DNA from: a virus
Lineage: Duplodnaviria > Caudoviricetes
IMG/VR virus record: IMGVR_UViG_3300033067_000212
Coordinates: 1 to 46,004 of that record
DNA length: 46,004 nucleotides
Strand: one strand, 5' to 3'
The notes beneath the pieces were generated by a model that was not told where the DNA came from, did not search any database, and worked only from the letters and a program-made list of their open reading frames with translations. Within the stretch, counting starts at the first letter, position 1. Every line of letters begins with the position of its first letter. The translations under genes and the position numbers were made by a program. This document shows positions 4,220-43,852 of the stretch, one piece after another.

Positions 4220-4393
4220 ATGAACGAAGAAGAGCGAGCTAAAGCAGCCTTAGAGTTTCTTACCTTATCGGAAGTACTTGAATGGTCGGGTATGACAGAA
4301 GAGGATGCTTTAGCTTTCCTTCTATATCATGGTGCTATTAGAATTCCAGATGAAGTATTTGAATTGAAAGAAGAAGATGGGCAAGACCTATAA
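4220..4393 (+). CDS. small acidic hypothetical protein (57 aa; not in ORF track)
   Basis: MNEEERAKAALEFLTLSEVLEWSG...GQDL*, fills the operon gap. Confidence 0.6.
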   Translation: MNEEERAKAALEFLTLSEVLEWSGMTEEDALAFLLYHGAIRIPDEVFELKEEDGQDL

Positions 4394-4613
4394 GGATCGA
4401 AAAGATTATCATGACAAAGGTGGGAAGCGAGCATTTAAACGTAATCGCAATCCTATTGCCCGTGGGTTACACACTCCTCTATATCGACCGAGACGAACTG
4501 AGGATAAGCGTGACTCTATTATAGAACATTTAGTTAAAGAGGATATTAAGTATGACCAAGGAGACGACCTTTCCGAAACCATTTCGATCCCAACTAGGTT
4601 ACACGATCTTTAA
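4377..4613 (+). CDS. small basic hypothetical protein
   Basis: 78 aa, K/R-rich, contains RNPIARGLHTPLYRPR. Confidence 0.6.
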   Translation: MGKTYKDRKDYHDKGGKRAFKRNRNPIARGLHTPLYRPRRTEDKRDSIIEHLVKEDIKYDQGDDLSETISIPTRLHDL

Positions 4614-6225
4614 GGAAAAGTATAGTCATGAAGGTGCTGAGACGTGGGAGTTGCTATGTGAGAAACTCGTTCGTCGTGTGTGTGATAAGTTACCTAAAAG
4701 CGATCAAGACGAACTTATCCAAATCATGTCAAACATGGAGTTCATTCCTGGTGGACGTTATCTGTATTATGCTAACCGTCCTGTTTCTTTCTTCAATAAT
4801 TGTTACTTACTAAAAGCAGATGAGGATACCCGTGAAGATTGGGCATACCTTTCTTGGAAAGCTGAGTCTTGTCTTATTACTGGTGGCGGGATCGGTGTTG
4901 ATTACAGCATCTATCGGCCTAGTGGCTCTCCTATATCTCGTACCGGTGGTGTAGCTTCCGGTCCTATTCCTAAGATGATGATGATCAATGAGATTGGTCG
5001 TAACGTAATGCAAGGTGGAGCACGTCGTAGTGCCCTTTATGCTTCGCTACGCCACTCTCATAGTGATATCAATGAATTTCTAGAAGTTAAAGATTGGGAT
5101 AACCAGAAGGTAGCAGGAACAGATGCCACTATTGGGGATTTGGTGCGTGCTAATTTTGCTTATAACGCTCCGCTTAGCTGTACTAATATTTCTGTAAACT
5201 ACGATACTGCTTGGATTGAGAACTTCAAGAAGACAGGAGATGTAGGTGAGGTATTCAAAAAGAATGTTAGGATGGCACTCCGTAACGGGGAGCCTGGATT
5301 CTCTTTCAACTTCTACGACAAAGAAAATGAAACACTTAGAAACGCTTGCACTGAAGTATCGTCATCCGATGACTCAGACGTATGCAACCTCGGATCAATT
5401 AATCTTGCTCGAATCAATGATAAAGATCATTTTAGACGAGTAGTAGAACTCTCTACTAAGTTCCTGTTATGTGGTACACTAAAGGCTGACTTACCATATA
5501 AGAAGATCTATGAGGTACGAGAAAAGAATCGTCGTCTTGGTCTTGGTCTTATGGGTGTTCATGAATGGTTAATGAAGAAGTCTAAGCGTTATGAAGTTGA
5601 TGATGAACTACACCAATGGTTATCAATCTACAAGTCTACGTCTGAGGAAACTGGTCGTACTACTGCTGACGCTTTCGGTATTTCTCGTCCTGTTGCCTAT
5701 CGTGCTATTGCTCCTACCGGTACTATTGGTATTCTTGCTGGTACTAGTACTGGTATCGAACCAATCTTCGCGATTGCTTATAAGCGTAGATACCTCACAG
5801 AAGGCAAAAGGTGGAAATACCAATATCACGTAGATCATATTGCAAATGAACTAATCAAGGAATACGGACTTGACCCTACGAAAATCGAGACTGCAAGTGA
5901 CCTTGCCAGAGACTATGAGCGACGTATTGCTTTCCAAGCCGACATCCAAGACTATGTGGACATGTCTATCTCGTCTACTATCAATCTACCTGCTTGGGAC
6001 CCTATTGATCCAAGTGTTGATGCTGACACTTTTGGAAACACTTTGGCCCGATATGCTCACCGTCTTAGAGGCTTCACTGTTTACCCTGATGGGGCACGTG
6101 GTGGCCAGCCCCTTGTACCTATGGATTACAATGAGGTACGCCACAAACTTGGAGAAGAGTTTGAAGAATCAAGTGAAGTTAACGATGTATGTTCATTAAA
6201 TGGTGGCGGTGTATGTGGAGTTTAA
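4552..6225 (+). CDS. nrdJ: class II (adenosylcobalamin-dependent) ribonucleotide reductase
   Basis: FIPGGR, NNC, GGGIG, QGGARRSA, NACTE, CNLGSINL, IAPTGT and a C-terminal Cys pair; no nrdB partner in the genome. Confidence 0.9.
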   Translation: MTKETTFPKPFRSQLGYTIFKEKYSHEGAETWELLCEKLVRRVCDKLPKSDQDELIQIMSNMEFIPGGRYLYYANRPVSFFNNCYLLKADEDTREDWAYLSWKAESCLITGGGIGVDYSIYRPSGSPISRTGGVASGPIPKMMMINEIGRNVMQGGARRSALYASLRHSHSDINEFLEVKDWDNQKVAGTDATIGDLVRANFAYNAPLSCTNISVNYDTAWIENFKKTGDVGEVFKKNVRMALRNGEPGFSFNFYDKENETLRNACTEVSSSDDSDVCNLGSINLARINDKDHFRRVVELSTKFLLCGTLKADLPYKKIYEVREKNRRLGLGLMGVHEWLMKKSKRYEVDDELHQWLSIYKSTSEETGRTTADAFGISRPVAYRAIAPTGTIGILAGTSTGIEPIFAIAYKRRYLTEGKRWKYQYHVDHIANELIKEYGLDPTKIETASDLARDYERRIAFQADIQDYVDMSISSTINLPAWDPIDPSVDADTFGNTLARYAHRLRGFTVYPDGARGGQPLVPMDYNEVRHKLGEEFEESSEVNDVCSLNGGGVCGV

Positions 6226-6743: not shown

Positions 6744-9086
6744 TTACTTCTTTTGCTTAGCTCTAGCTGTAGCCATCACTTCTTGTATCGAAGCTGCTGG
6801 TATTTTAGCTGTCTCTTGAGCAAACATCTCATTCATTTGTGAAATGAGACCATCTAGTTCCTGAGCTAACTCAGGTGTCGGTTGAGATTTAAATAGCTGA
6901 GATGTCTCTAGTATCTGTTGTCTCATACCATCGAACTTATCCTTAGGCCATGAGTAGGTAGATGTACCATCATACTGGTTATTACCTGCTGATAGTGATG
7001 AAGGATTATCAGATCTTGCCAGATCAATTCTATCTTGTAGATTAGCGTCAGCACCTAATCCTCGTGGAGCACGACCACCAATCTTACCACCATTAGCTGT
7101 AGGTGATAGTGCATCGATGTTTAGTCCCGCTCTACTATAAAGACTACGGATACCATTAGCTAGATCATTAGTCTGTAGCTTGATGATAGGTGTTAGCTGT
7201 CGTGTTACTACATTCATCTGCTCGGCTAGTAGTGTAGCTTCTTGTAGATCACCAGTACGTTGTGTATTGCTAGGTGGTGCAGCCTTGTATGCTAATTCAC
7301 CTACTGGATTAAATTGAGAAGCAGAGAACTCACCGGTATTAGGATTGAAGTCAATCTTAGCGTATCGTACTCTATCAATGAAACCAGATTTAACAGAATC
7401 AATTGTAGTTTTATTGACTGTAAGACCAGTGTTCAATGCGAAGGATACGTAACCATCTAGTATTCGTGGTTCACGAGAACCAATAGCTTTAACTTGATTG
7501 GTCATATCTTGAGTAGTAAGCTTCTGGAAGATCTCCATTTGCTTAGCCTTAGACTCTTCTGGCTTTAAATTACCAGAGCTATCCTTTACTGCAATACGTC
7601 CAATCCAACCTACGTTCTCTGGTGCGAATAAGAATGTAGCGGCTTTGCTCCTAGCTACAGGATCAGTATTCTTGTCTAAGACTAGACGCACCACATCATC
7701 AGTTACTGCCTGAGTTACAGATGATGGATTGAGTGAAGCATTACCATACTCTTTGATGTTTCTAATCTTAGAATCTGCATTAGCTAGTGATGGTGTACGA
7801 CTAGTAAGAGCATCTGCTAACATCATCTCTCGTGCTGTACGATTAGCAGCATCTGCTAGCCCAGAGATAGAAGGACTATCACGTAAGGTAAGCATTTGAG
7901 ATGCTACTTGTGGACCGTAGGCTTTATTAGCAATATTGAATGCTCGGCTATGTTCATCATTAAGTAGACGTTGCTGACCATCAGCTAGTACTGTCTCAAT
8001 CTTCCTAGTGTTAGAATTGAATGCTCCCCAATCTTTATTCAGTAGTGGAGAATAATGAGCATCAAAGCGTTCTGTGTATGTCTTGATCGTATCTTCGATA
8101 TCCTTACGTTCCATACGACCAGCATTCACTAGTGATACACCACCACTATCATTATGTAATCGATTGGATAGACGAGCTAACCATTGGTTACGTAGTTCAC
8201 CAATAGAAAGATTCAATTCTTCTTGCATTTTAGGTGTGAACAATGAAGGATCGGCTTGGAACTTAGTAGCCATCTCATTGATCTCTTTAAAGGTAACACC
8301 CTTAGAAGTCATACCTTGTTTTACGAAAGCATTAAAGTCTTGACTTAGTGTCTCATTGACACCAGCCATAAAGACTTGCTTGTCTTCAGCAGCAATGCCA
8401 GTCTTAGCTGTATGAGCAGCAATAATCTGTGCTGTTCTATTCTTAATCTGGTTCTCACCGGCTAGCATAGACTCCATCTCTGGACGAGGAACAGGAGCAC
8501 CACGCTTAGCTTCAATACCAGCGATATCAATACCAGCTTTGATTAACTCTTGACGTACAGTTTCGTTACGCTTATCCTCGGCTGGCATGGTGTCGTACAC
8601 ATCTTGCCTTAGGGATTTGATAAGTGCTGAAGCTGGTTTAATACCAGTCATATCCTGGATACGACCATCGATATAGTCCTTATATCCAGAATACTTATAC
8701 CGTAGCTCACGAGCAATCTGGTCTAACTGTAGATTGTAGTAAGTATCCTTGACTACACCCATACGATTAGCTTGCTGTAGCTTAGCAGCACGATCTAGTT
8801 CACTATTGATCTGAGGTGGAATAGCATCAGCAGGAGGTGGATTACCAGCAAACATGTAGTTACTGATAGTCTGATCCTGAACAGCTTGTACTTTATTACG
8901 TACATCTTCTGATGCTTCTCGTTTAATAGAAGAATCAATAGCGTCTACGCCAGCTTTGATAGTATCTCCTAGAGCACCTAGAAGGGAGGACCCGCTACTA
9001 GCGGTTGTCTTACCTTGAGAGTACTGTAGGAAGGACGGTTCATTACCCGCCCCTCCTGAGATTGTGTTTGCAGTAAAGTCAACCAT
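6744..9086 (-). CDS. internal virion (ejection) protein
   Basis: 780 aa, predicted helical, last gene of the podoviral structural operon. Confidence 0.65.
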   Translation of the reverse strand: MVDFTANTISGGAGNEPSFLQYSQGKTTASSGSSLLGALGDTIKAGVDAIDSSIKREASEDVRNKVQAVQDQTISNYMFAGNPPPADAIPPQINSELDRAAKLQQANRMGVVKDTYYNLQLDQIARELRYKYSGYKDYIDGRIQDMTGIKPASALIKSLRQDVYDTMPAEDKRNETVRQELIKAGIDIAGIEAKRGAPVPRPEMESMLAGENQIKNRTAQIIAAHTAKTGIAAEDKQVFMAGVNETLSQDFNAFVKQGMTSKGVTFKEINEMATKFQADPSLFTPKMQEELNLSIGELRNQWLARLSNRLHNDSGGVSLVNAGRMERKDIEDTIKTYTERFDAHYSPLLNKDWGAFNSNTRKIETVLADGQQRLLNDEHSRAFNIANKAYGPQVASQMLTLRDSPSISGLADAANRTAREMMLADALTSRTPSLANADSKIRNIKEYGNASLNPSSVTQAVTDDVVRLVLDKNTDPVARSKAATFLFAPENVGWIGRIAVKDSSGNLKPEESKAKQMEIFQKLTTQDMTNQVKAIGSREPRILDGYVSFALNTGLTVNKTTIDSVKSGFIDRVRYAKIDFNPNTGEFSASQFNPVGELAYKAAPPSNTQRTGDLQEATLLAEQMNVVTRQLTPIIKLQTNDLANGIRSLYSRAGLNIDALSPTANGGKIGGRAPRGLGADANLQDRIDLARSDNPSSLSAGNNQYDGTSTYSWPKDKFDGMRQQILETSQLFKSQPTPELAQELDGLISQMNEMFAQETAKIPAASIQEVMATARAKQKK

Positions 9087-28315: not shown

Positions 28316-30355
28316 TTAAGTAGTGATAGCCACTAAATCAGCATCTTTACGTCTAGTGCTCCATAGAGCAATCTTAGCAATAACAATGTTAGCTACACCT
28401 ACTGCTGGATTCCAAGAAGCAGAACCAATATAAGCTTTAGTCATTGTCTCTAATGGTGGATTAACACTAGTATCTGGTATAGCAGCAGCACCATTCAATG
28501 AGAAGGAACTATTATTGTGACCGTAATACATAGCTACTTTAGTCAATGCACCATCAAATGTAGGTGTACCAGTAAAAGAAGAAGTTTGATCTATGTTATT
28601 AGAAAGTACTGTACCTTTGACATCACTAACATGATTGATGAAAATAGCTTCAGTAGGATTGTTACTAGTAGGTGATAGGCTAATAAGGTAGCTATTAGTC
28701 GTAGATGTAGAAGGCTTGGTATAGAACTCAGAATATAGTGTGCATTGCTGGAAAGAAGAAGCAGTGGCAATTGTAGTAGTAGTGGGGACTAGATCAGTAT
28801 ATGTATCTAGCTGTTCTAATTGAGAACCCCATAAAGAGAATGTACCACCTGACGTAACAGCTGAATTTCGATATGGATAGATACGAATAGAAGAACAATC
28901 AGCAGGTGTCGTGAATGTAAAATCAAAACGTAGCCATACACCAGAAGTTAGAGTTACATTAGGTACTTGGTTATTATAAAGTAATACGGTATTAGTAATA
29001 TCATAGATAGCAAACTTGTACTCAGCAGAAAGGAACGTACCTAGATTCACATACTGAGAAAAGGTATAAACAGTGTTTGGTGTAACGGGAAAGGTTTGGT
29101 AGAGACATTGATTAGCACTAGTATCAACAGTTATAACATCAGCAGTTAAAGAAGAATCAGGTGCTGTAGCAGTATTAGGTGCTACTGAGACACCAGCAGT
29201 CTTTCCCCACGTAGCGTCATCATAAGAATTAGACTGTAGTGCTAGATTAGTAGTAGTGGTAACCAAACCAGTATTGAAAGCACCAGAAGATAGTAGTGCA
29301 CCGGTATCAGGAGAACGAGTAACTTGTGTTCCTACAGTCGGAATGTAAGAAGAAGCAGCATTTCCTGTTTCTACTTGGATTCCCCAAAGTTGGATAGTAC
29401 CTGAATTTACAGGTGGAGTAGCGAATGATGTAGGTTGCCTATAAGGGAATACACGTAAGTTAGTAGCACCTACGGTAGAAGTGAATGTGAATGATACACG
29501 TGACCACATATTCTGTGGTAACGAAGGCAAAGCTTGAGTGAAGAAGGTAACTGTAGTTTGGTCAGCAATACCAATGACTAAATCGGAAGAAGGAAAGTTA
29601 TTAGGTTTAACATAGAAAGAAAGAGTATAAACTGTACTAGCAGCAACACCAACAGAAATAACCTGATAAAGATATGAGTTAGCGTTACCAGCTGTTTGAT
29701 TGATAGTAACAGCTGTTTTAGTACCGTCTGGTGCATAATCAGAATTGTTGGTAATAGTGATACCACCACCTACATTCCAATTAGCATTGATGTCTTGAGA
29801 ACTGTACACTAGATTAGTGGCTGCTGGTTCTAAGAGAAGACCTAAGGGTTTACCGGTACCTAGCTCATGAGTGAGTCTAGCTGTGTTAACAGCAGCTGTA
29901 TCTACCATTCCTTTATTATTTACGAAGGTAGCTGTTGAAGCACGACTAATAGAAAGATTAGATAGTAGATCCTTATATACAGAACCTTCCTTGTATGTCT
30001 TGTTGACAAAGTCGAACTCTACATTAGCTGTAAAGTTAGAAGGAGGTGTAATTGCAAATGAACCACTAACAATAGTACATCTAGCAGCACCAGTAAATAA
30101 ATTAGTAGTGAATGGTGGAAGACAAATGTTTCTATAGCCTTCAGGAGAGTACGCAGTGGTTTGTTGTGTGGTGGTAGAATCAAGAGTTACTTTAACTAGC
30201 ATAGCACCACAAGGATGATATAGACCCCTATGGATAGCAGGATTACCTTCGACAACATACATAGAACCATCAGGAGCATTGAGACCAGTAAGAGTGGTCC
30301 CATTGACTACTGTGATCCTAAGCGAGCCATCATCTGCGTATAAAAAGTTGGGCAT
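28316..30355 (-). CDS. head spike/fibre-like virion protein with duplicated carbohydrate-binding-like modules
   Basis: SRASTATFVN..GLLLEPAATNL motif and two TNL..S....W..APD modules ending LWGIQVE and LWGSQLE. Confidence 0.7.
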   Translation of the reverse strand: MPNFLYADDGSLRITVVNGTTLTGLNAPDGSMYVVEGNPAIHRGLYHPCGAMLVKVTLDSTTTQQTTAYSPEGYRNICLPPFTTNLFTGAARCTIVSGSFAITPPSNFTANVEFDFVNKTYKEGSVYKDLLSNLSISRASTATFVNNKGMVDTAAVNTARLTHELGTGKPLGLLLEPAATNLVYSSQDINANWNVGGGITITNNSDYAPDGTKTAVTINQTAGNANSYLYQVISVGVAASTVYTLSFYVKPNNFPSSDLVIGIADQTTVTFFTQALPSLPQNMWSRVSFTFTSTVGATNLRVFPYRQPTSFATPPVNSGTIQLWGIQVETGNAASSYIPTVGTQVTRSPDTGALLSSGAFNTGLVTTTTNLALQSNSYDDATWGKTAGVSVAPNTATAPDSSLTADVITVDTSANQCLYQTFPVTPNTVYTFSQYVNLGTFLSAEYKFAIYDITNTVLLYNNQVPNVTLTSGVWLRFDFTFTTPADCSSIRIYPYRNSAVTSGGTFSLWGSQLEQLDTYTDLVPTTTTIATASSFQQCTLYSEFYTKPSTSTTNSYLISLSPTSNNPTEAIFINHVSDVKGTVLSNNIDQTSSFTGTPTFDGALTKVAMYYGHNNSSFSLNGAAAIPDTSVNPPLETMTKAYIGSASWNPAVGVANIVIAKIALWSTRRKDADLVAITT

Positions 30356-30673
30356 CAATACATCCTAAATAGAATTAGCGAAAGAATACGTATGAGTATG
30401 CCGGAGTGATCTGTACGAAGGACTAGCCAAAGGCCGAAGGTCTTTGGGTATGTCCGATCCATCAAGAGGATATCTTCGCGTGAGCCCTTAAGGCGAACGC
30501 AGAAGAGGAGAACTTAAAGGTGATGTTGATATACCCCCTGCCCCCTAGTACAATATAGAACTATTAAGTAACTACTATAGTGATAACTACTAATTGTAAC
30601 CTTAGTAGGTTCAACCCCGGTTTCGTTTCACTCAACCACCCCTTAAGTAAGGGGATATACATTTAATAATGTA

Positions 30674-30702
30674 ATTATACACTAGTGGGAAGTCATTGTC
30701 AA
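30674..30702 (-). promoter_or_regulatory. consensus sigma70 promoter pointing into the structural operon
   Basis: On the - strand, TTGACA-17 nt-TATAAT, a perfect match. Confidence 0.85.
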
Positions 30703-30881
30703 GAGAAATCGTACAAATTGTTAAGAAAATTATGTAGCAAAAATTTTGTGACGTATTTTTAAGGGGTTATTCCTCGCCGCCGCCTACCCCCGGCACCCCC
30801 ATTAACCCTTGTTAACTTAACCTTTTCTTAAATAAATTTAATTTAACTTCATAGATTGTATGAAAATGGGATTCTGAGGGT

Positions 30882-30896
30882 GCGGCATGTTGTCGC
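30882..30896. promoter_or_regulatory. possible RegR/RegA(PrrA)-type box
   Basis: GCGGC-ATGTT-GTCGC fits the GCGGC-N5-GTCGC RegR box; single occurrence. Confidence 0.3.
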
Positions 30897-31028
30897 AGGG
30901 TCTAGGATGTTAAAGATTTGTCAGAAAATTTGTAAATTTCCCGCCGCCACCTGCGGCCTGGTACACGCCTAACCCATTAAGATTGTTAATCTTTCTCCAA
31001 AGGAAGACGCGACAAGCGTCGTGAGCCC

Positions 31029-31160
31029 TCCGCCCATGTCGGTGTTGTGGATGTGGCCGCCGGTCCAGCACATGATCTCGCCGTCGTGGAACACCGGCTT
31101 CCACAGGTGCAGGTCGGGCGTGTGGGTGGCGAGGAAGCCGCTGTAGGGATCGTTGGCGAG
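31029..31160 (-). pseudogene. internal fragment of a bacterial hydantoinase B/5-oxoprolinase gene
   Basis: Reads LANDPYSGFLATHTPDLHLWKPVFHDGEIMCWTGGHIHNTDMGG (NDPY..H.PD..PVF.DGE..H..D.GG), with high-GC codons. Confidence 0.8.
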
Positions 31161-31258
31161 GCGCGTAGGGCTTGCCGCTCGGCCGATGGGTCATCGCCCC
31201 GGGCAACACGCCGAAGGGCTTCCTGCGCGATCCTACGGGCTTCCTCGATGCTGAAAGC
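31160..31258 (-). pseudogene. fragment of a tyrosine integrase arm-binding domain
   Basis: Reads AFSIEEARRIAQEALRRVARGDDPSAERQALRA. Confidence 0.7.
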
Positions 31259-31393
31259 GTCGCTAGACGCGACTTAACGGGGTACCCGCCGGTCGAGAAC
31301 AGCATCTCGCGCACGCGATAGACCTGGTTAGTTGTTTTGTCAGAAATTATGTGTATATACCTGACCAATAGAAAGCCCGAGAGGTGGCATCAG

Positions 31394-32083
31394 ATGTCTG
31401 GCGTAGCTGACAAAATCTTGAATCGTGTGCGCGGTCATGGCCGGGGGGTACGCGTGTACATCCCGAAGGACTTCCTCGACCTGGGCAGCCGTGCCTCCGT
31501 CGATCAGGCCTTGTCGCGTCTGTGCAAGGCCGGGACGCTCCGTCGTGTGGGTCGCGGTCTCTACGACTGGCCTCGCCATAGCGTCGTGCTGGATCAGCCT
31601 GCTCCCGCGAGCATCGATGCCGTGGTGGATGCCGTGAAGCGGCGCGCCAACGTCCAGGTCGTGCCGGGAAATTTGGCTGCCGCCAACGCGCTCGGGCTAA
31701 CTCATGCGGTGCCTACTCGCCCGGAGTTCCTGGCAAGCCGTCATCTTGGCGATGTCACGATCGGCAATCGCACGGTGACTTTCAGCGCCGCCGGTGCAGT
31801 TCTGTCCCCGTGGCTCGACACACCGGCAGCGGTTATCGTGCAGGCACTCGTTTGGCTGCATGACAATGCCAGAGACCGATTGACTGATGCCGTTCCGACC
31901 CTGCGCAAGCAGGCGTCAAACGACGCAAAGCGCTCGTTGGCGAAGGGTCTCAACAAACTCCCGGGCTGGGCCATTCCAGCCGCTCGCAGCATTGTGGAGA
32001 ATCGGGCACCACCGGCAGCATCGGCACGCCGACACGCTCGTAGTCGCGGAAGCGGTCGCTATAAGTCATTAACTCCAAAGTAA
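31394..32083 (+). CDS. DUF6088-family (AbiEi-like type IV antitoxin / wHTH regulator), orphan, with chimeric C-terminus
   Basis: PKDFLDLGSRASVDQALSRL..GTLRRVGRGLYD and AANALGLTHAVP; GAGGTG RBS; GC-rich; no toxin gene follows. Confidence 0.85.
   Translation: MSGVADKILNRVRGHGRGVRVYIPKDFLDLGSRASVDQALSRLCKAGTLRRVGRGLYDWPRHSVVLDQPAPASIDAVVDAVKRRANVQVVPGNLAAANALGLTHAVPTRPEFLASRHLGDVTIGNRTVTFSAAGAVLSPWLDTPAAVIVQALVWLHDNARDRLTDAVPTLRKQASNDAKRSLAKGLNKLPGWAIPAARSIVENRAPPAASARRHARSRGSGRYKSLTPK
32007..32054 (-). pseudogene. fragment of heme O synthase (protoheme IX farnesyltransferase, CtaB/CyoE family)
   Basis: Reads RFRDYERVGVPMLPVV, matching the DY...GVPMLPVV motif. Confidence 0.6.
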
Positions 32084-32152
32084 CTTGTCTATGGAATCCT
32101 GTGATTGTTCGGAGCTAATAGCGAACTCGCTTCGCTCGTTCTTCAGTCGAGT

Positions 32153-32561
32153 AAGACGCGACTAGCGTCGCTTAGCTTCGGATAAGGCACTCACGGTGCC
32201 TTGCACTAGCTGCCATCCCCTAGACGGGAACCGGCTAGCAACGGGGATGCTTTGATCACGGGCATGGTGTAGCAACCTTGCCCTATGGTTAGAGTACATC
32301 CACTAGGTAACGCCATGGGCAACATGGTGTTGTGCGAATTGATGCCGTGCCATCGAAGCGATAGCAGTCCCGTTAGGCAATCCAGCGGGGCGCGGGATAT
32401 CCTTTGCTAGTCGTGTTTCGTATCGGTTACGCATGACCTATGCACACTTGCGAGTGTGGTTAGGTGTAGCGTATGCGGTACTTCAAGTCACACTTGCGAA
32501 GCCATATCACCCATATGATCGTTATCCTACCTTCCATATCAAGCGACACTAGTCGCGTCTT
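32153..32561 (+). ncRNA. candidate large structured non-coding RNA
   Basis: No ORF of 60 aa or more, several nested helices with G-U pairs on +, closed by a 20/21-bp inverted motif pair. Confidence 0.5.
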
Positions 32562-32585
32562 CCGTTATCGACAAGGGAGTCTGCC

Positions 32586-32786
32586 ATGTACCGCTATGAC
32601 CGTAAGAATGACAAGCTAATGACAATCGACACGGCCAAGCCTCACGAAATGCCGGACGTTATCCAGTATGAGCCGACCCGTGGAATGATGCGTGGTGTGC
32701 CTAAGGTGTATCCGAAAAGCCACGATAACTCTGGCAAGTGTGCCAAGGTATCGGGCGGCTATGTTCAATTGAAGTATTCGCGTTAA
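32586..32786 (+). CDS. early hypothetical protein
   Basis: GGGAG RBS; the stop codon overlaps a motif copy. Confidence 0.7.
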   Translation: MYRYDRKNDKLMTIDTAKPHEMPDVIQYEPTRGMMRGVPKVYPKSHDNSGKCAKVSGGYVQLKYSR

Positions 32787-32849
32787 GACGCGACAAGCAT
32801 CGCTATAGGATCAAGCCGGACAATAGCCCGGCTTTCGTTCCCTTACGAC

Positions 32850-32879
32850 GCCTATTAACATCGTGTTAGTAGGTCTTTT
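32850..32879 (+). terminator. terminator-like hairpin
   Basis: GCCTATTAACA-TCG-TGTTAGTAGGT followed by CTTTT. Confidence 0.45.
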
Positions 32880-32895
32880 AAGGGAACAAACTACA

Positions 32896-33507
32896 ATGGC
32901 AATCGCTGTTACCAAGGATGGTGCTACGCTTTCCAAGCTCATTACGGGCATAAGGCGTCGCACTGCTTCGTTGCAAGCGGACATGCATGTCATCGCTGTC
33001 TCATGCGTCATGCACGCCGTCGAATTCGGCAATGCCTTGCCTGCAACTCAATTCGTCGAAGCTCTGACCGGAGGCAGCAAGTCGTATGCCATCCGTGTGA
33101 ATGCTTTGAAGAAATGGTTCGAAGAAGTCGGATGCTTCACTTGGAACAAGGAGGAAACTCCGGGCTTCAAGATGAACGCCGCTCGTCGTGCCATGCTCAA
33201 GGGTATGGACGAAGCCAAGGCTATCGCCACCTTGTCTAAGGTTCCGTTCTGGGAATACGCACCGGAACCGGAGTACAAGGGCTTCGACTTCAATGCTCGC
33301 CTTCTGTCGCTCATTTCCCAAGCGAACAAGGCCAAGCGTGAACACGGCGACGACGAAAAGACCAAGGTTGACGATACCTTGATCGCATCTATCCAGATGT
33401 TGCTCAATCGTACCGATGGCGACGACGACAACAGGGCTTCCGTTCCTATGATTGAAGCCGCTGTACTGGAAGCGTCCAACGTCGACGGCACCTATACCGT
33501 CAACTAG
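32896..33507 (+). CDS. early hypothetical protein
   Basis: Probable ATG start at 32896 (MAIAVTKDG...) after AAGGGA; H..AVSC..HA..FGN and FWEYAPE pattern resembles podoviral early proteins. Confidence 0.8.
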   Translation: MAIAVTKDGATLSKLITGIRRRTASLQADMHVIAVSCVMHAVEFGNALPATQFVEALTGGSKSYAIRVNALKKWFEEVGCFTWNKEETPGFKMNAARRAMLKGMDEAKAIATLSKVPFWEYAPEPEYKGFDFNARLLSLISQANKAKREHGDDEKTKVDDTLIASIQMLLNRTDGDDDNRASVPMIEAAVLEASNVDGTYTVN

Positions 33508-33610
33508 GACGCGACAAGCGTCGCTATAGAAGGCCACACTCCAATAGCGAACTCGCTTCGCTCGTTCTTCACAAGAAACTGTAAGACGCGACAAGCGTCG
33601 CTATAACTAT

Positions 33611-33646
33611 ACCTCGGTTAAGCTAACGCTTAGCCGGGGTTTTTGT
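33611..33646 (+). terminator. intrinsic terminator
   Basis: ACCTCGGTTAAGC-TAAC-GCTTAGCCGGGGT followed by TTTTGT. Confidence 0.8.
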
Positions 33647-33690
33647 GTTCTCATCTTAAAGCGATGCTTGTCGCGTCTGGAGCTATCACT

Positions 33691-33954
33691 ATGGCTGTCA
33701 TTCGGATCGAAGACAAGGATCTTGCTCGGCTTGCGAAGACCGGCAAGAAGAATCACACCACGTCTATCACTATCTACGTTGACGAGGTGAAGCCTGTTTC
33801 TCGGCATCGCTATGCCATCAAGCGTGGCAACGAGACTGTCATCGTCAATCGCGATGCCGTCACTACGGTCTACGCTAAGACGCGACAAGCGTCGCTTGGA
33901 CCGAAGCTCTACAAGGTGAAGGCATCGGCTGCCATCCTCTCGTCTCTGGTGTGA
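33691..33954 (+). CDS. early basic hypothetical protein
   Basis: GGAG RBS, then MAVIRIEDKD...; contains an in-frame motif copy (KTRQASL). Confidence 0.7.
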   Translation: MAVIRIEDKDLARLAKTGKKNHTTSITIYVDEVKPVSRHRYAIKRGNETVIVNRDAVTTVYAKTRQASLGPKLYKVKASAAILSSLV

Positions 33955-34043
33955 AGGAGAAATGTTAGACGCGACAAGCGTCGCTATGTGATCTTTGCCA
34001 TCCTCTCTATCGTCTATGTCATCTACGTATGGAGCAACTAGCT

Positions 34044-34226
34044 ATGAATCCCAACGATACTAAGATGAAGCAAGCACACCTTCAATCCGATCATAGGTGC
34101 CATTGCAATCTCAAGCCGAAGGACTGCAAATTCCCTGACTGCAACGCTGATCGCACACCCAAGCACATCATGCAGACTGTGGTGTCGCTTCTCCCTCCCC
34201 TCGCCAAGCATCTGATGGCTCACTGA
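34044..34226 (+). CDS. small Cys-rich hypothetical protein
   Basis: CHC..C...C pattern; GGAG upstream. Confidence 0.55.
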   Translation: MNPNDTKMKQAHLQSDHRCHCNLKPKDCKFPDCNADRTPKHIMQTVVSLLPPLAKHLMAH

Positions 34227-34228
34227 CC

Positions 34229-34615
34229 ATGCTCTTCTTTGTATACGGCACCCTGATGGAATACTCAGGGCGTATGACTCAGTTCTCTCCTGAAGCACAC
34301 AAGATCGATGACTTCGTACTCGATGGTGCTGTCATCTATTCTTTGGGAGGTTACCCTGGTCTCATCCTCACTGATGACAACACCGATTCTGTCAAAGGTG
34401 AGGTATGGTTTGTCCCTGATAAGGACATACCTAAGTTGGATCGCTATGAATCTGAAGGTTACCTCTACCTCAGACAAGTGGTCACGATCTTCAACGATAT
34501 CGATCCGGTATCTGCGTACATCTACAACCACGATGTGAATGGGTGTACTAAGATACCAGACGGTAACTGGTTGCAGTACATCAACAAAGCAAATAGCGAC
34601 GCTTGTCGCGTCTAG
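34229..34615 (+). CDS. gamma-glutamylcyclotransferase (AIG2/GGCT-like)
   Basis: FFVYGTLM, YPGL, VKGEVW, LDRYE, AYIY and GNW. Confidence 0.9.
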   Translation: MLFFVYGTLMEYSGRMTQFSPEAHKIDDFVLDGAVIYSLGGYPGLILTDDNTDSVKGEVWFVPDKDIPKLDRYESEGYLYLRQVVTIFNDIDPVSAYIYNHDVNGCTKIPDGNWLQYINKANSDACRV

Positions 34616-34625
34616 AGAGGTGTTC

Positions 34626-34742
34626 ATGCGTAAGATACCAACCATTGGTGAGCAAGTCAAGCACATGCTCGTCGCCCTCGCCATTACCGGTGTGTACATT
34701 CTCATCTGTGCTGTACACTCGATCGATATCCGTGCTGTCTAA
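34626..34742 (+). CDS. small membrane protein
   Basis: GAGAGG RBS; MRKIPT... with one TM segment. Confidence 0.55.
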   Translation: MRKIPTIGEQVKHMLVALAITGVYILICAVHSIDIRAV

Positions 34743-41703: not shown

Positions 41704-43284
41704 ATGATTAAATCTAAACCTATTCGTAATAAGACCCATATCCCATGTCCTAAGTGTTCCTCTTCAGATGCGTTTGTAGAGTACGATGATGGACATGGGT
41801 TTTGTTTTTCTTGTAACCAAGTTACTCGTCTTAACTCTTTTACTTATGATGATAGTAAGGACACAACTATAGTGACACAACAATACGTACCTCATAGGGG
41901 TATCACAGCAGACACACTACGGTTCTATGATGTCAAGACTAACGTAGGTGCTAACAATTATCCCATCTCTTCTGACTTCAAATACGGTAGTGAGTTCACT
42001 ATCACTAGGGAATGGGATCGTAAAGCATTCAAGTCTACTGGTATCTCTGAGTCTATCAAGCTATTCGGACAAGATAAGTTTAATAGTGGTAGTGCTAAGT
42101 CAATCACTATCTGTGAAGGTGCACACGATGCACTAGCTGTGTATCAAATGCTAGGTAGCAAGTACCCTAGTGTAGCAGTAAGGTCTGCTAGTACAGCACT
42201 TAAAGACTTGCAAGCTAATCATACTTACGTTAATTCATTTGATCAAATCTATTTCTGCTTTGATAACGATGCTGCTGGTGAGAAGGCACTCTCACAATGT
42301 GCATCCTTGTTTGATGTCAACAAGGTATATCATGTCAAGCTAGACAAATACAAAGATGCCAATGACTACCTAATCAATGGTGTATCTAAAGAGTTTGTAT
42401 CTGCTTGGTTCAATGCACCACAATACATGCGTAAGGGTATCGTCTCTTCGTATCGTAAGATTGCCGAACTACTTAATACCGATACTAAAGCTACTGATGC
42501 TACCTTTCCATTCCCTACGTTAGATGGTCTCACCTTTGGTATCCGCTTTGGTGAGGTGTACCTCTTCACTGCACAAGAGAAGATCGGTAAGACTGAGGTG
42601 ATGCGTGCTATTGAGTATCATCTATGTAAGACTACCGATCATAACATCGGTATCATTCATCTAGAAGAACAAGAGAAACGATCTATCCAAGGTCTATGTT
42701 CATATGAACTACAAACACCATGCCATCTACCTACATCAGCTGCGTCGAAAGAAGATCAAATCAAAGCATACGAAGCGTTTACTAAGCACGATGGTCGCAT
42801 CTCTTTCTATACTCACTTTGGCAGTGATGACCCAGATAGTATTCTGGATACTATACGTTACATGGTTACAGTCTTGCATTGTAAATTCATTTTCCTTGAC
42901 CACATTACTATGTTGGTAACAGGATTCGAAGGTGATGATGAACGTAAGAAACTTGACTACATCTCTACTCGGCTTGCTATGCTTACGAGGGAATTGGACT
43001 TCGCTCTCTTCCTCGTCTCACATGTTAATGATGATGGTAAGACGAGAGGTTCTAGAAACATCTCTAAAATTGCTGATCTTATCGTACATCTCGATCGTGA
43101 TATTGAATCTGCTGATCCTAGCCAACGTAATAGAACTAACTTATTGGTTAAGGGTAATCGTTTTGGTGGCACCACTGGCCCTGCCGGTAGCCTTTTGTTT
43201 AATAGTGATACTTACACAATCAAGGAAGTAGATGAAACCGAGTTGGCGAAGGTGCGTACCACAGCTGGAATCGTACCGTTCTAA
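41704..43284 (+). CDS. T7 gp4-like primase-helicase
   Basis: CPKCSSSDA..CFSC zinc ribbon, TOPRIM ICEGAHDA and FDND, helicase IGKT, FLDH and VSH. Confidence 0.93.
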   Translation: MIKSKPIRNKTHIPCPKCSSSDAFVEYDDGHGFCFSCNQVTRLNSFTYDDSKDTTIVTQQYVPHRGITADTLRFYDVKTNVGANNYPISSDFKYGSEFTITREWDRKAFKSTGISESIKLFGQDKFNSGSAKSITICEGAHDALAVYQMLGSKYPSVAVRSASTALKDLQANHTYVNSFDQIYFCFDNDAAGEKALSQCASLFDVNKVYHVKLDKYKDANDYLINGVSKEFVSAWFNAPQYMRKGIVSSYRKIAELLNTDTKATDATFPFPTLDGLTFGIRFGEVYLFTAQEKIGKTEVMRAIEYHLCKTTDHNIGIIHLEEQEKRSIQGLCSYELQTPCHLPTSAASKEDQIKAYEAFTKHDGRISFYTHFGSDDPDSILDTIRYMVTVLHCKFIFLDHITMLVTGFEGDDERKKLDYISTRLAMLTRELDFALFLVSHVNDDGKTRGSRNISKIADLIVHLDRDIESADPSQRNRTNLLVKGNRFGGTTGPAGSLLFNSDTYTIKEVDETELAKVRTTAGIVPF

Positions 43285-43852
43285 GATTAAACTACAGGAT
43301 GATGGTATGTCCCCACATCCTGATTTACGTTTAAGACCTTATGATACTACCAATATGATTGATGTTAAGGTGGTATTCATGGGATGGAATCCATATCGTA
43401 ATAGGAAACAAGCTACAGGATTTGCATTCGAAGCAAATGAGGGTATACATAAACCACAAGAGTTAGCTACACTCCACTTAATGCTGATAGATGACATCAA
43501 GTGCAGGCCACCTTATAGACATAGCTTACGTCAATGGACTGAACAAGGTGTACTTCTTATCAACCGTAATATCCAACGATATAAATCATCTCGTGGGTTC
43601 TTCGATCACACTGAGTCTCATACGATACAGCATCGAACCTTGACTCATCTAGATCAATCACGTCGTGTGTTTGTATTCTTTGGCTATAGTGCACAGAAAC
43701 TATCTGTGTGTATTACTCGTGGATTGGTAATTAAGTTACCGTATCCACATCCTCACCGACTAGAAGAACTGAAGAAAGCTAAGCTGTTCTCTACTATCAA
43801 TAAGCATCTCGTGAAGCACAACATCAAACCTATCGATTGGAAACTAACATGA
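43232..43852 (+). CDS. uracil-DNA glycosylase family 1-like protein with substituted catalytic motifs
   Basis: VKVVFMGWNPY, ATGFAF, WTEQGVLLIN and PIDW; start uncertain. Confidence 0.75.
   Translation: MKPSWRRCVPQLESYRSKIKLQDDGMSPHPDLRLRPYDTTNMIDVKVVFMGWNPYRNRKQATGFAFEANEGIHKPQELATLHLMLIDDIKCRPPYRHSLRQWTEQGVLLINRNIQRYKSSRGFFDHTESHTIQHRTLTHLDQSRRVFVFFGYSAQKLSVCITRGLVIKLPYPHPHRLEELKKAKLFSTINKHLVKHNIKPIDWKLT

Follow-up and report, generated by a model that had tools for sequence, protein, structure and literature searches.

Bacterial DNA scraps around a near-complete AbiEi-type antitoxin gene in the early region of a lytic wastewater phage

By what route do strictly lytic phages that lack an integrase come to carry genes of their hosts? 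Such gains are usually attributed to unspecified illegitimate recombination. The question becomes concrete in the window analysed here (the whole stretch of 46,004 nucleotides, a 46-kb podophage genome estimated to be 97% complete), in which a block of about 1 kb (31004-32063) consists of bacterial DNA scraps flanking one near-whole antitoxin gene of a lytic wastewater phage. In co-existing strains the steps themselves are visible: donors, joins, successive patches and one retained gene. A preliminary description, made from the sequence alone, had seen in the block a snapshot of degraded host DNA captured by a phage repeat. We lean instead, with moderate confidence, towards a patchwork that a lytic phage resembling Zobellviridae built up in its early arm, in several steps at microhomologies, and kept for the host AbiEi antitoxin it carries.

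The pieces of the block and their donors

The coordinates first given for the block hold, with AAGACGCGACAAGCGTCG at 31004-31021 and GTCGCTATA at 32055-32063, and it is indeed GC-rich: 31001-32000 has 61-64% GC, compared with 39% over the 500 bases leftward. Its features and those around it are:

30479..30488, plus strand: phage copy of the left linker (identical 10-mer)
31004..31021, plus strand: left part of the phage hairpin repeat; in the window the cargo follows GTCG
31020..31029, plus strand: linker equal to phage 30479-30488, a possible templated insert; also in X19 and X2 contigs
31029..31160, minus strand: internal fragment of hydantoinase B/oxoprolinase (PF02538, E 8e-11; 44 codons, GC3 0.95)
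31151..31254, minus strand: integrase arm-binding-domain fragment, part 1 (PF13356, Arm-DNA-bind_3, E 4e-6)
31255..31274, plus strand: 'permuted' hairpin repeat inside the integrase fragment; an intact forward copy stands here in X1 (P0133)
31275..31285, minus strand: integrase fragment, part 2; loose ends after 31254 in X2 and X20, longer in X1 and X19
31286..31326, minus strand: high-GC3 coding patch reading NQVYRVREMLFSTGG; this form only in the window
31327..31393, plus strand: native antitoxin upstream region, aligning to L028, L029 and L054 from 31327-31329 onward
31394..32083, plus strand: AbiEi-type antitoxin (DUF6088) ORF, 229 aa (Pfam DUF6088, E 4e-18; PADLOC AbiEi, E 5e-47)
32003..32056, minus strand: internal fragment of heme o synthase (cyoE/ctaB), 91-96% to Hyphomicrobiaceae loci
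32050..32063, plus strand: right junction, where the cyoE end overlaps the right repeat half; bridged in X1, X2 and X19
32117..32145, no strand assigned: second hairpin, whose core reads GCGAAGC on the minus strand; it recurs at 33543-33571 and is polymorphic between strains
32153..34614, both orientations: early region with nine more repeat copies, between and inside small genes

The block is real, its joins being spanned by contigs from three studies; X19 may be the source sample, so that the independent studies for the junctions number two. The junction evidence consists of assembled contigs from six (X1, X2, X7, X8, X19, X20) of 24 listed runs, 20 of which were holders of the sequence, and a junction is bridged in three of the six. 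A single X19 contig (30873-33569) spans the entire block. In X1 a contig (31327-32112) bridges the right junction and the hydantoinase-integrase join is bridged as well, while in X2 one contig (31586-32098) bridges the right junction and another connects the left flank with the antitoxin by way of 13 nt of the block followed by 399 nt of other sequence. The comparison with backbone depth called for in the preliminary description gave values near the backbone on the joined contigs, at 8.9 against 13.4 on the next backbone contig in X19 and 5.75 against 7.6 in X1. In X2 the antitoxin contigs have a depth of 6.6 against 18-37 for the backbone, so most X2 phages seem to be without this block. The DUF6088-cyoE-phage join is identical in contigs of studies P1, P2 and P12, at near-backbone depth in two of them. 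X7, X8 and X20 also have DUF6088 pieces with 1-2 differences; as these stop short of any junction, they were assigned to neither phage nor host.

We also confirmed that the pieces come from separate bacterial loci: hydantoinase, integrase arm, DUF6088 and cyoE match distinct loci in Hyphomicrobiaceae-like genomes. Our whole-genome DNA searches covered the family of a Hyphomicrobium MAG (301 genomes) and G003. Within the family, the best DNA matches of the antitoxin (91%), of the hydantoinase fragment (92% over 130 nt, to G221:C10) and of the cyoE scrap lie in different genomes or contigs. The heme o synthase scrap, proposed from the outset and now placed at 32003-32056, reaches up to 96% over 50 nt to heme o synthase genes, and the host ORF that it matches scores above the TIGR01473 cut-off. 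DUF6088 and cyoE stand on different contigs in G001, G002 and G234, as do hydantoinase and cyoE in G221, and the host DUF6088 gene is followed by AbiEii, not by cyoE. The whole block is absent from all 301 genomes of the Hyphomicrobium-MAG family, none of which holds all the pieces at near identity either, and none of 72,556 plasmids covers more than 18% of it.

Other parts of the first reading needed redrawing. The integrase arm domain stands, but its extent is 31151-31285 rather than 31160-31258, split by the 'permuted' motif. Part 1 is 100% identical to X2 and X20 contigs that read on as an unbroken integrase, and the 11 further integrase bases beyond the inserted repeat (31275-31285) are seen in X2 and X20 loose ends. 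These unbroken-integrase contigs may be host or phage; that of X2 has a depth of 23, close to the phage's. Homologues of the integrase fragment, at 42-56% amino-acid identity, occur in 18 of the 301 family genomes. The coding snippet is high in GC as described, with boundaries at 31286-31326 in place of 31285-31329. A related variant is present in X19, and native DUF6088 upstream DNA takes its place in X1. No donor for it was found in 251 family genomes or 11 genus genomes, and a comparison with 256 loci gave matches of 19-21 nt only, the best in a different gene and frame; we doubt that this patch alone is an artefact, but the suspicion is a reasonable one. The left linker CGTGAGCCCT does have its only copies at 30479 and 31020, yet the match is weak on its own, since phage DNA likewise contains 49 of the 1023 10-mers of the cargo. 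A GTCG duplicated at both ends of the block is not assured: GT at 32055-56 also fits cyoE, and the idea is weakened further by strains that exit the motif after AAGC (31017) and by the empty site, an uninterrupted motif without cargo, which the preliminary description had hoped to find and which was seen in none of the six runs.

Remodelling between strains and the hairpin repeat

The joins agree with the microhomology stitching first suggested, as adjoining pieces have 2-6 exact bases in common, or as many as 8-10 if one mismatch is allowed: 6 exact bases between hydantoinase and integrase (9-10 with one mismatch), 4 exact between DUF6088 and cyoE (7/8), 4 nt between repeat and integrase, and 2 nt between cyoE and repeat (GT exact, with AAGCG also shared). 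Some of the 2-4 nt overlaps are near chance (p 0.18 and 0.02). The overlaps are minimum estimates, because donors are known through homologues (90-96%) or 30-nt loose ends; for two joins no donor was found. An 11-mer is common to 30917-30927, in phage DNA left of the block, and 31336-31346, in the antitoxin upstream region, these being its only copies in the window; it may be an old anchor, an operator mimic or chance.

Four haplotypes (window, X19, X1 and X2) share 31327-32063, that is, the likely promoter, DUF6088 and the cyoE scrap, with point changes only. The roughly 320 bases to the left are remodelled: 7 differences fall within 323 nt, whereas 728 nt of the core have no indel (p about 3e-4 for a uniform spread, with events counted by eye in runs that were found with this sequence). 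X1 carries, after 31165, a reverse repeat of 22 nt flanked by TA on either side, a replaced patch at 31185-31201, the intact repeat at 31255 instead of the 'permuted' form, and native antitoxin upstream DNA instead of the 31286-31326 patch. X19 has more integrase and its variant of the coding patch. In X2 the left repeat is shorter by a 7-nt deletion and 399 nt of other DNA replace the hydantoinase fragment. X1 and X8 also have contigs in which different cargo begins after AAGC (31017) of the left repeat. The block is therefore the product of several steps and not of one capture event. A single snapshot of degraded DNA does not fit, for the core is old (23 private changes, 18:1 AT-ward) and intact, and there are at least four haplotypes. 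The hydantoinase and 31286-31326 scraps keep a GC3 of 0.94-0.95 and look younger than the core; together with the AT-ward synonymous changes and the lack of indels in the core, this agrees with a core that is old and under constraint and with scraps of later date.

The patchwork that we favour could have arisen as follows. The phage encodes an endonuclease I and a Cas4-like exonuclease, which would fragment host DNA; single strands would then anneal at microhomologies at the replication fork and become fixed, as in SPDIR, the short-patch form of double illegitimate recombination. The phage's own hairpins would be frequent donors, perhaps because folded oligonucleotides resist exonucleases, and the products would be tolerated only in the non-essential early end. 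The antitoxin would be expressed early and neutralise the host AbiEii, and selection would retain it while the scraps to its left turn over. A single-strand annealing protein was not identified in the genome. The ORF at 43232-43852 was considered as an annealase and rejected, being uracil-DNA-glycosylase-like; it adjoins the primase-helicase gene.

The hairpin repeat of about 20 nt deserves attention in its own right. It has 10 copies, all within 31006-34612 (0 in 100 shuffles), which make up about 6% of the early region; one lies in frame inside a gene. Its fold is a stem of 5 bp, within which CGTC is paired, closed by a 5-nt G(N3)A loop; on the opposite strand the 'permuted' form folds identically, with an A-T to T-A swap. 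Relative to the related viruses L012 and L024, copies are present, absent or inverted at matching sites. Insert lengths are 19-24 nt with variable ends, a copy stands at 30897 in X20 where the window is empty, X2 has a tandem repeat, and copies are inserted inside captured DNA at 31165 (X1) and 31255. The second hairpin is likewise present, absent or inverted between strains. Solitary copies of the 'permuted' 19-mer occur in L012, in a phage contig of X7 and, at 8 loci, in three viral lineages that are unrelated. A degenerate scan gave 123 loci from 52 of 64 collection parts, 94 after dereplication, many of which are chance matches in GC-rich DNA; the free stem position pairs in 42 of the 94 sites against 28% expected (p 4e-4), with all four pair types. 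These observations point to a hairpin family spreading within and between phage genomes. Among the loci with the 19-mer (L019; L008, L016-L018, L023, L025; L001-L010), one unrelated contig has arrays with a 38-nt period, and in several AT-rich contigs the 19-mer adjoins other small hairpins.

The repeat occurs in only 2 of the 301 host-family genomes, as a single copy in each (control, 1), and in none of 11 of the 13 terminase-linked loci (those other than L100 and L103). A search of Rfam gave no match, and none of the 9 promoter-like sites of sigma-70 type overlaps any copy. Exonuclease resistance is documented for mini-hairpins with GCGNAGC or GCGNNAGC cores (PMC13037366, in its accessible text). 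The second hairpin fits the resistant GCGAAGC core exactly, and the main repeat resembles these mini-hairpins by analogy, its 5-nt G(N3)A loop not being among those listed in the same portion of that source. The region is not enriched in such cores (4 against 1.6 and 3 against 1.9 in shuffles). Two side observations concern short hairpins in this part of the genome: contigs of X1 and X2 show the segment 30880-30905, close to where the genome presumably ends, in inverted orientation, and a further X2 contig shows it rearranged, and 33515-33569 (repeat tail plus second hairpin) is a 55-nt tandem duplication in X19 that is absent or shorter in X2, L012 and L024.

Could the repeat be a programmed landing site, cut by a phage or host nuclease so that the breaks were healed with any DNA? 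The junctions lend this view, which is that of the preliminary description, some colour: the left junction lies inside the repeat in three forms, after GTCG (window, X19, X2) and after AAGC with two other cargos (X1, X8), and the right junction lies inside a repeat half. The stem covariation across viruses also speaks for it, and hairpin-specific ssDNA nucleases exist (Ssn, according to the accessible part of PMC11893778). Nevertheless, we consider such targeting unlikely. No empty site appeared in the six runs, the left-junction forms may have a common origin, the repeat, as an insertion that is polymorphic in its own right, has entered captured DNA with variable ends, and no recombinase or HUH gene was found. 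Moreover, the tyrS gene in L012 and the cargo join in L024 lack an intact repeat, and the tyrS joins mean that capture in this lineage does not need one. A fixed landing pad is thus not supported, as the repeat is polymorphic, occurs within the integrase DNA that was captured and is one of a covarying hairpin family present in unrelated viruses; since all joins seen at this site lie in the repeat, it may still be a hotspot of breakage or landing. A further reading, which we would not expect to prove right but which merits mention, is that the hairpin is a minimal mobile DNA of unrelated phages that copies itself to new places as a folded single strand with a 1-2 nt end match, making the early end a mutable 'capture pad' that samples host fragments and fixes useful genes (AbiEi here, tyrS in a relative). 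If true, lytic phages would have a means of acquiring genes for counter-defence that needs no enzyme.

The captured antitoxin and the remaining alternatives

DUF6088 was first listed among the degraded pieces. That cannot be maintained, as the gene is nearly complete: residues 1-206 of the native 209 are followed by a 23-residue read-through tail, so that only the three final residues are missing. The same fused tail is found in P0133 (X1; a Logan protein on a 1056-nt contig). The PADLOC AbiEi match covers residues 3-205 and takes in the full length of the profile, and close AbiEi homologues have 204-212 aa. At the nucleotide level the gene is 91% identical to L028 and L030 and 90% to L029. 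Bacterial homologues overlap or directly precede an AbiEii toxin gene (L029, L054) and none was found in the phage genome; judged by its sequence, the phage gene is an orphan AbiEi antitoxin and not an AbiE system. The upstream region 31327-31393 likely holds its promoter or operator and its ribosome site. Relatives of DUF6088 were found in none of 13 candidates among viral contigs and, at 25-30% identity only, in 6 phage records; the PDB gave no match for the antitoxin protein (P0002).

Compared with three bacterial copies, the private changes of the antitoxin run 18 GC>AT to 1 AT>GC (hosts 25:15, p 0.011), and 17 are synonymous against 6 non-synonymous (neutral share 0.36, p 2e-4), an excess of which part could have arisen in the donor lineage. 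For P0002 with the AbiEii toxin of L054, a complex was predicted with a score of 0.82 (best of 3 controls 0.00), above a mark reached by 51 of 78 solved pairs and 2 of 108 mismatched pairs. The runs agree in at least 71% of contacts, the partner pLDDT is at least 84, and the predicted interface (residues 63-178) lies outside the fused tail. The antitoxin is thus predicted to bind the toxin of its L054 relative; as a crystal structure of AbiEi:AbiEii exists, the pass shows likeness to a solved complex and not binding by the phage copy. AbiEi binds AbiEii and triggers its inactivation, and AbiE-type systems block some phages, according to the accessible part of 10.64898/2026.01.19.700257, in which the S. 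agalactiae AbiE gave protection in E. coli against 0 of 32 phages; AbiE is therefore not always a defence. AbiEii/DUF6088 pairs are listed in a table of PMC12654330, in the portion available. The phage protein likely blunts the suicide (abortive-infection) defence of a host AbiE.

One may object that the antitoxin is a neutral passenger in a tolerant region. The block is a minority in X2, the phage haplotypes differ by 5 coding SNPs (3 synonymous), too few for a signal of selection, and runs found with this sequence favour intact copies. We nonetheless think neutrality distinctly unlikely, given a core whose 728 nt are free of indels next to 323 nt with 7 events, the 17:6 synonymous excess with its AT-ward skew, and the retention of both upstream region and reading frame.

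It could also be that an island, prophage or plasmid of the host had brought the integrase and antitoxin pieces together beforehand, and that they entered as one and underwent no more than remodelling in the phage. The two are genes of islands, AbiE adjoining ArdC in L029 and a type I restriction subunit in L054; the X1 integrase piece passes directly into native antitoxin upstream DNA, and in L024 this region contains an IS1595 transposase alongside genes of prophage type. Against this, no integrase match stands beside DUF6088 in L028, L029, L030 or L054, hydantoinase and cyoE are metabolic genes cut mid-codon-run, and the plasmid coverage never exceeds the 18% given above, so that prior joining appears improbable to us. 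An amplification or assembly chimera, to which the strain mosaic of the window and the unsupported 31286-31326 patch might point, is largely refuted and deserves hardly any credence, because the DUF6088-cyoE-phage join recurs across studies P1, P2 and P12 and the overlaps at the joins are far below assembler word length.

Comparable systems, the phage and its host

Taken together with known systems, the multi-step patchwork would best be read as SPDIR combined with moron capture in a plastic region like that of PeSL cassettes, with an antitoxin counter-defence like that of pseudo-ToxI or AdfB. SPDIR in Acinetobacter baylyi, as far as the accessible text describes it (10.1101/2023.11.22.568220), inserts patches of about 3-100 bp at (extended) microhomologies on both sides without a recombinase; its donors are ssDNA at the fork, it is suppressed by RecA and exonucleases, and it is very rare in the bacterial chromosome. 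The block resembles it in its short foreign or own patches, which would be joined at microhomologies, those of 8-54 nt being in the size range, but here the process would act in a lytic phage and is stacked at one locus, and the hydantoinase (130), integrase (135) and antitoxin (~680 nt) pieces are larger. PeSLs of the T4-type phages RB49 and phi1 are similar in being stem-loop repeats confined to a plastic early region that gains and loses genes without an integrase. They are described, in the accessible part of PMC2839356, as promoter-plus-terminator units of ~100 bp that shuffle whole ORFs by homologous crossover, whereas the repeat here has ~20 nt and no sigma-70 promoter, lies in both orientations and also inside genes and cargo, and accompanies broken host DNA.

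A lytic phage with an antitoxin and no toxin, as proposed here, has parallels in pseudo-ToxI of phiTE (PMC5449768) and AdfB of ICP1 against DarTG (PMC11481870), both taken from partial texts. The present gene differs as a direct capture of a host AbiEi (91% nt) with its upstream DNA and a fused tail, its function being a putative one; relative to AbiE proper (DUF6088 plus PF08843) it is an orphan in which the last 3 residues are replaced by 23. The REPs tagged with GTAG/CGTC are likewise short palindromes, patchy between strains, but as given in the available text of PMC3733652 their tag is unpaired on a stem of 8-9 bp, in contrast to the 5-bp stem with CGTC paired inside; instead of the many host copies and linked Y1 transposase of a REP/REPtron, we found copies in 2 of 301 genomes and no PF01797. 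The second hairpin carries the exact core of the DNA mini-hairpins of PMC13037366 (same portion of the source). Site-specific, integron-like capture does not agree with the lack of PF00589 or with junction points and insert lengths that vary. In the literature covered, largely outside subscription journals, we found no description of this repeat or of an orphan AbiEi in a lytic phage. The captured AbiEi antitoxin provides a testable case of counter-defence which, if true, would mean that AbiE of this DUF6088 type is active against phages in natural settings.

The genome encodes DNA polymerase A, a T7-type primase-helicase and an amidoligase cluster, and, as had been stated, no integrase (PF00589 absent); a Y1 transposase (PF01797), an HUH gene or another recombinase was not found in it either. 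Its terminase is 57% identical to those of the cobaviruses CRP-5, ICBM1 and P12053L. The structural arm ends at 30358 (minus strand) and the early arm starts from about 31000 (plus strand); terminase, gene order and two opposite arms place it with Zobellviridae, a placement made on these features rather than on a family tree. It differs from cobaviruses in having no DNA-level match for 30300-34700 in 50,697 phage records and in its probable Hyphomicrobiaceae host. As the genes of Zobellviridae form two clusters of opposite direction and their genomes have terminal repeats (accessible text of PMC9960094), the block likely lies near the first-entering end, and by gene order and the same source the genome end may be near 30400-31000. 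The contig ends (2-735 and 45271-46004) overlap by 735 nt at 84% identity, as two alleles of the DNA polymerase region, so the genome is closed but assembled from two strains. The early 203-aa protein had no relative among viral contigs (0 of 21 candidates), and 2056-2949 was left unnamed by the atlas. A perfect sigma-70 promoter (12/12) at 30702-30674 (minus strand) is directed into the structural arm, and a sister phage is present in ENA/Logan as a contig of 45,989 nt, reached via the cluster of 32896-33507 (P0141).

The piece matches of 91-96% in genomes of that family suggest that the host likely lies in or near Hyphomicrobiaceae; the antitoxin also matches a Lysobacterales MAG at 91%. A likely host group is thereby named for an uncultured phage. 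Hyphomicrobiaceae are wastewater denitrifiers.

The relative L012 (about 95% identity) holds a whole host-like tyrS gene of 423 aa at 4223-5494 (minus strand), corresponding to window site 34231. It is 72-75% identical to Hyphomicrobiaceae, fused to a phage start codon, and lies between diverged direct repeats of ~45 nt with no hairpin repeat at the joins; its GC3 of 0.74 points to an older capture. As tRNA-Tyr-cutting defences exist (PMC13096335, accessible part), the gene might possibly be linked to them. The tyrS of phage Ostro was considered as a parallel capture and rejected, being part of a contiguous stretch of host chromosome. In L024, 618-2306 contains GC-rich prophage-like small genes and an IS1595 transposase after an early gene, and L012, at another early site (6912-6966), has 55 nt that are 100% identical to this DNA.
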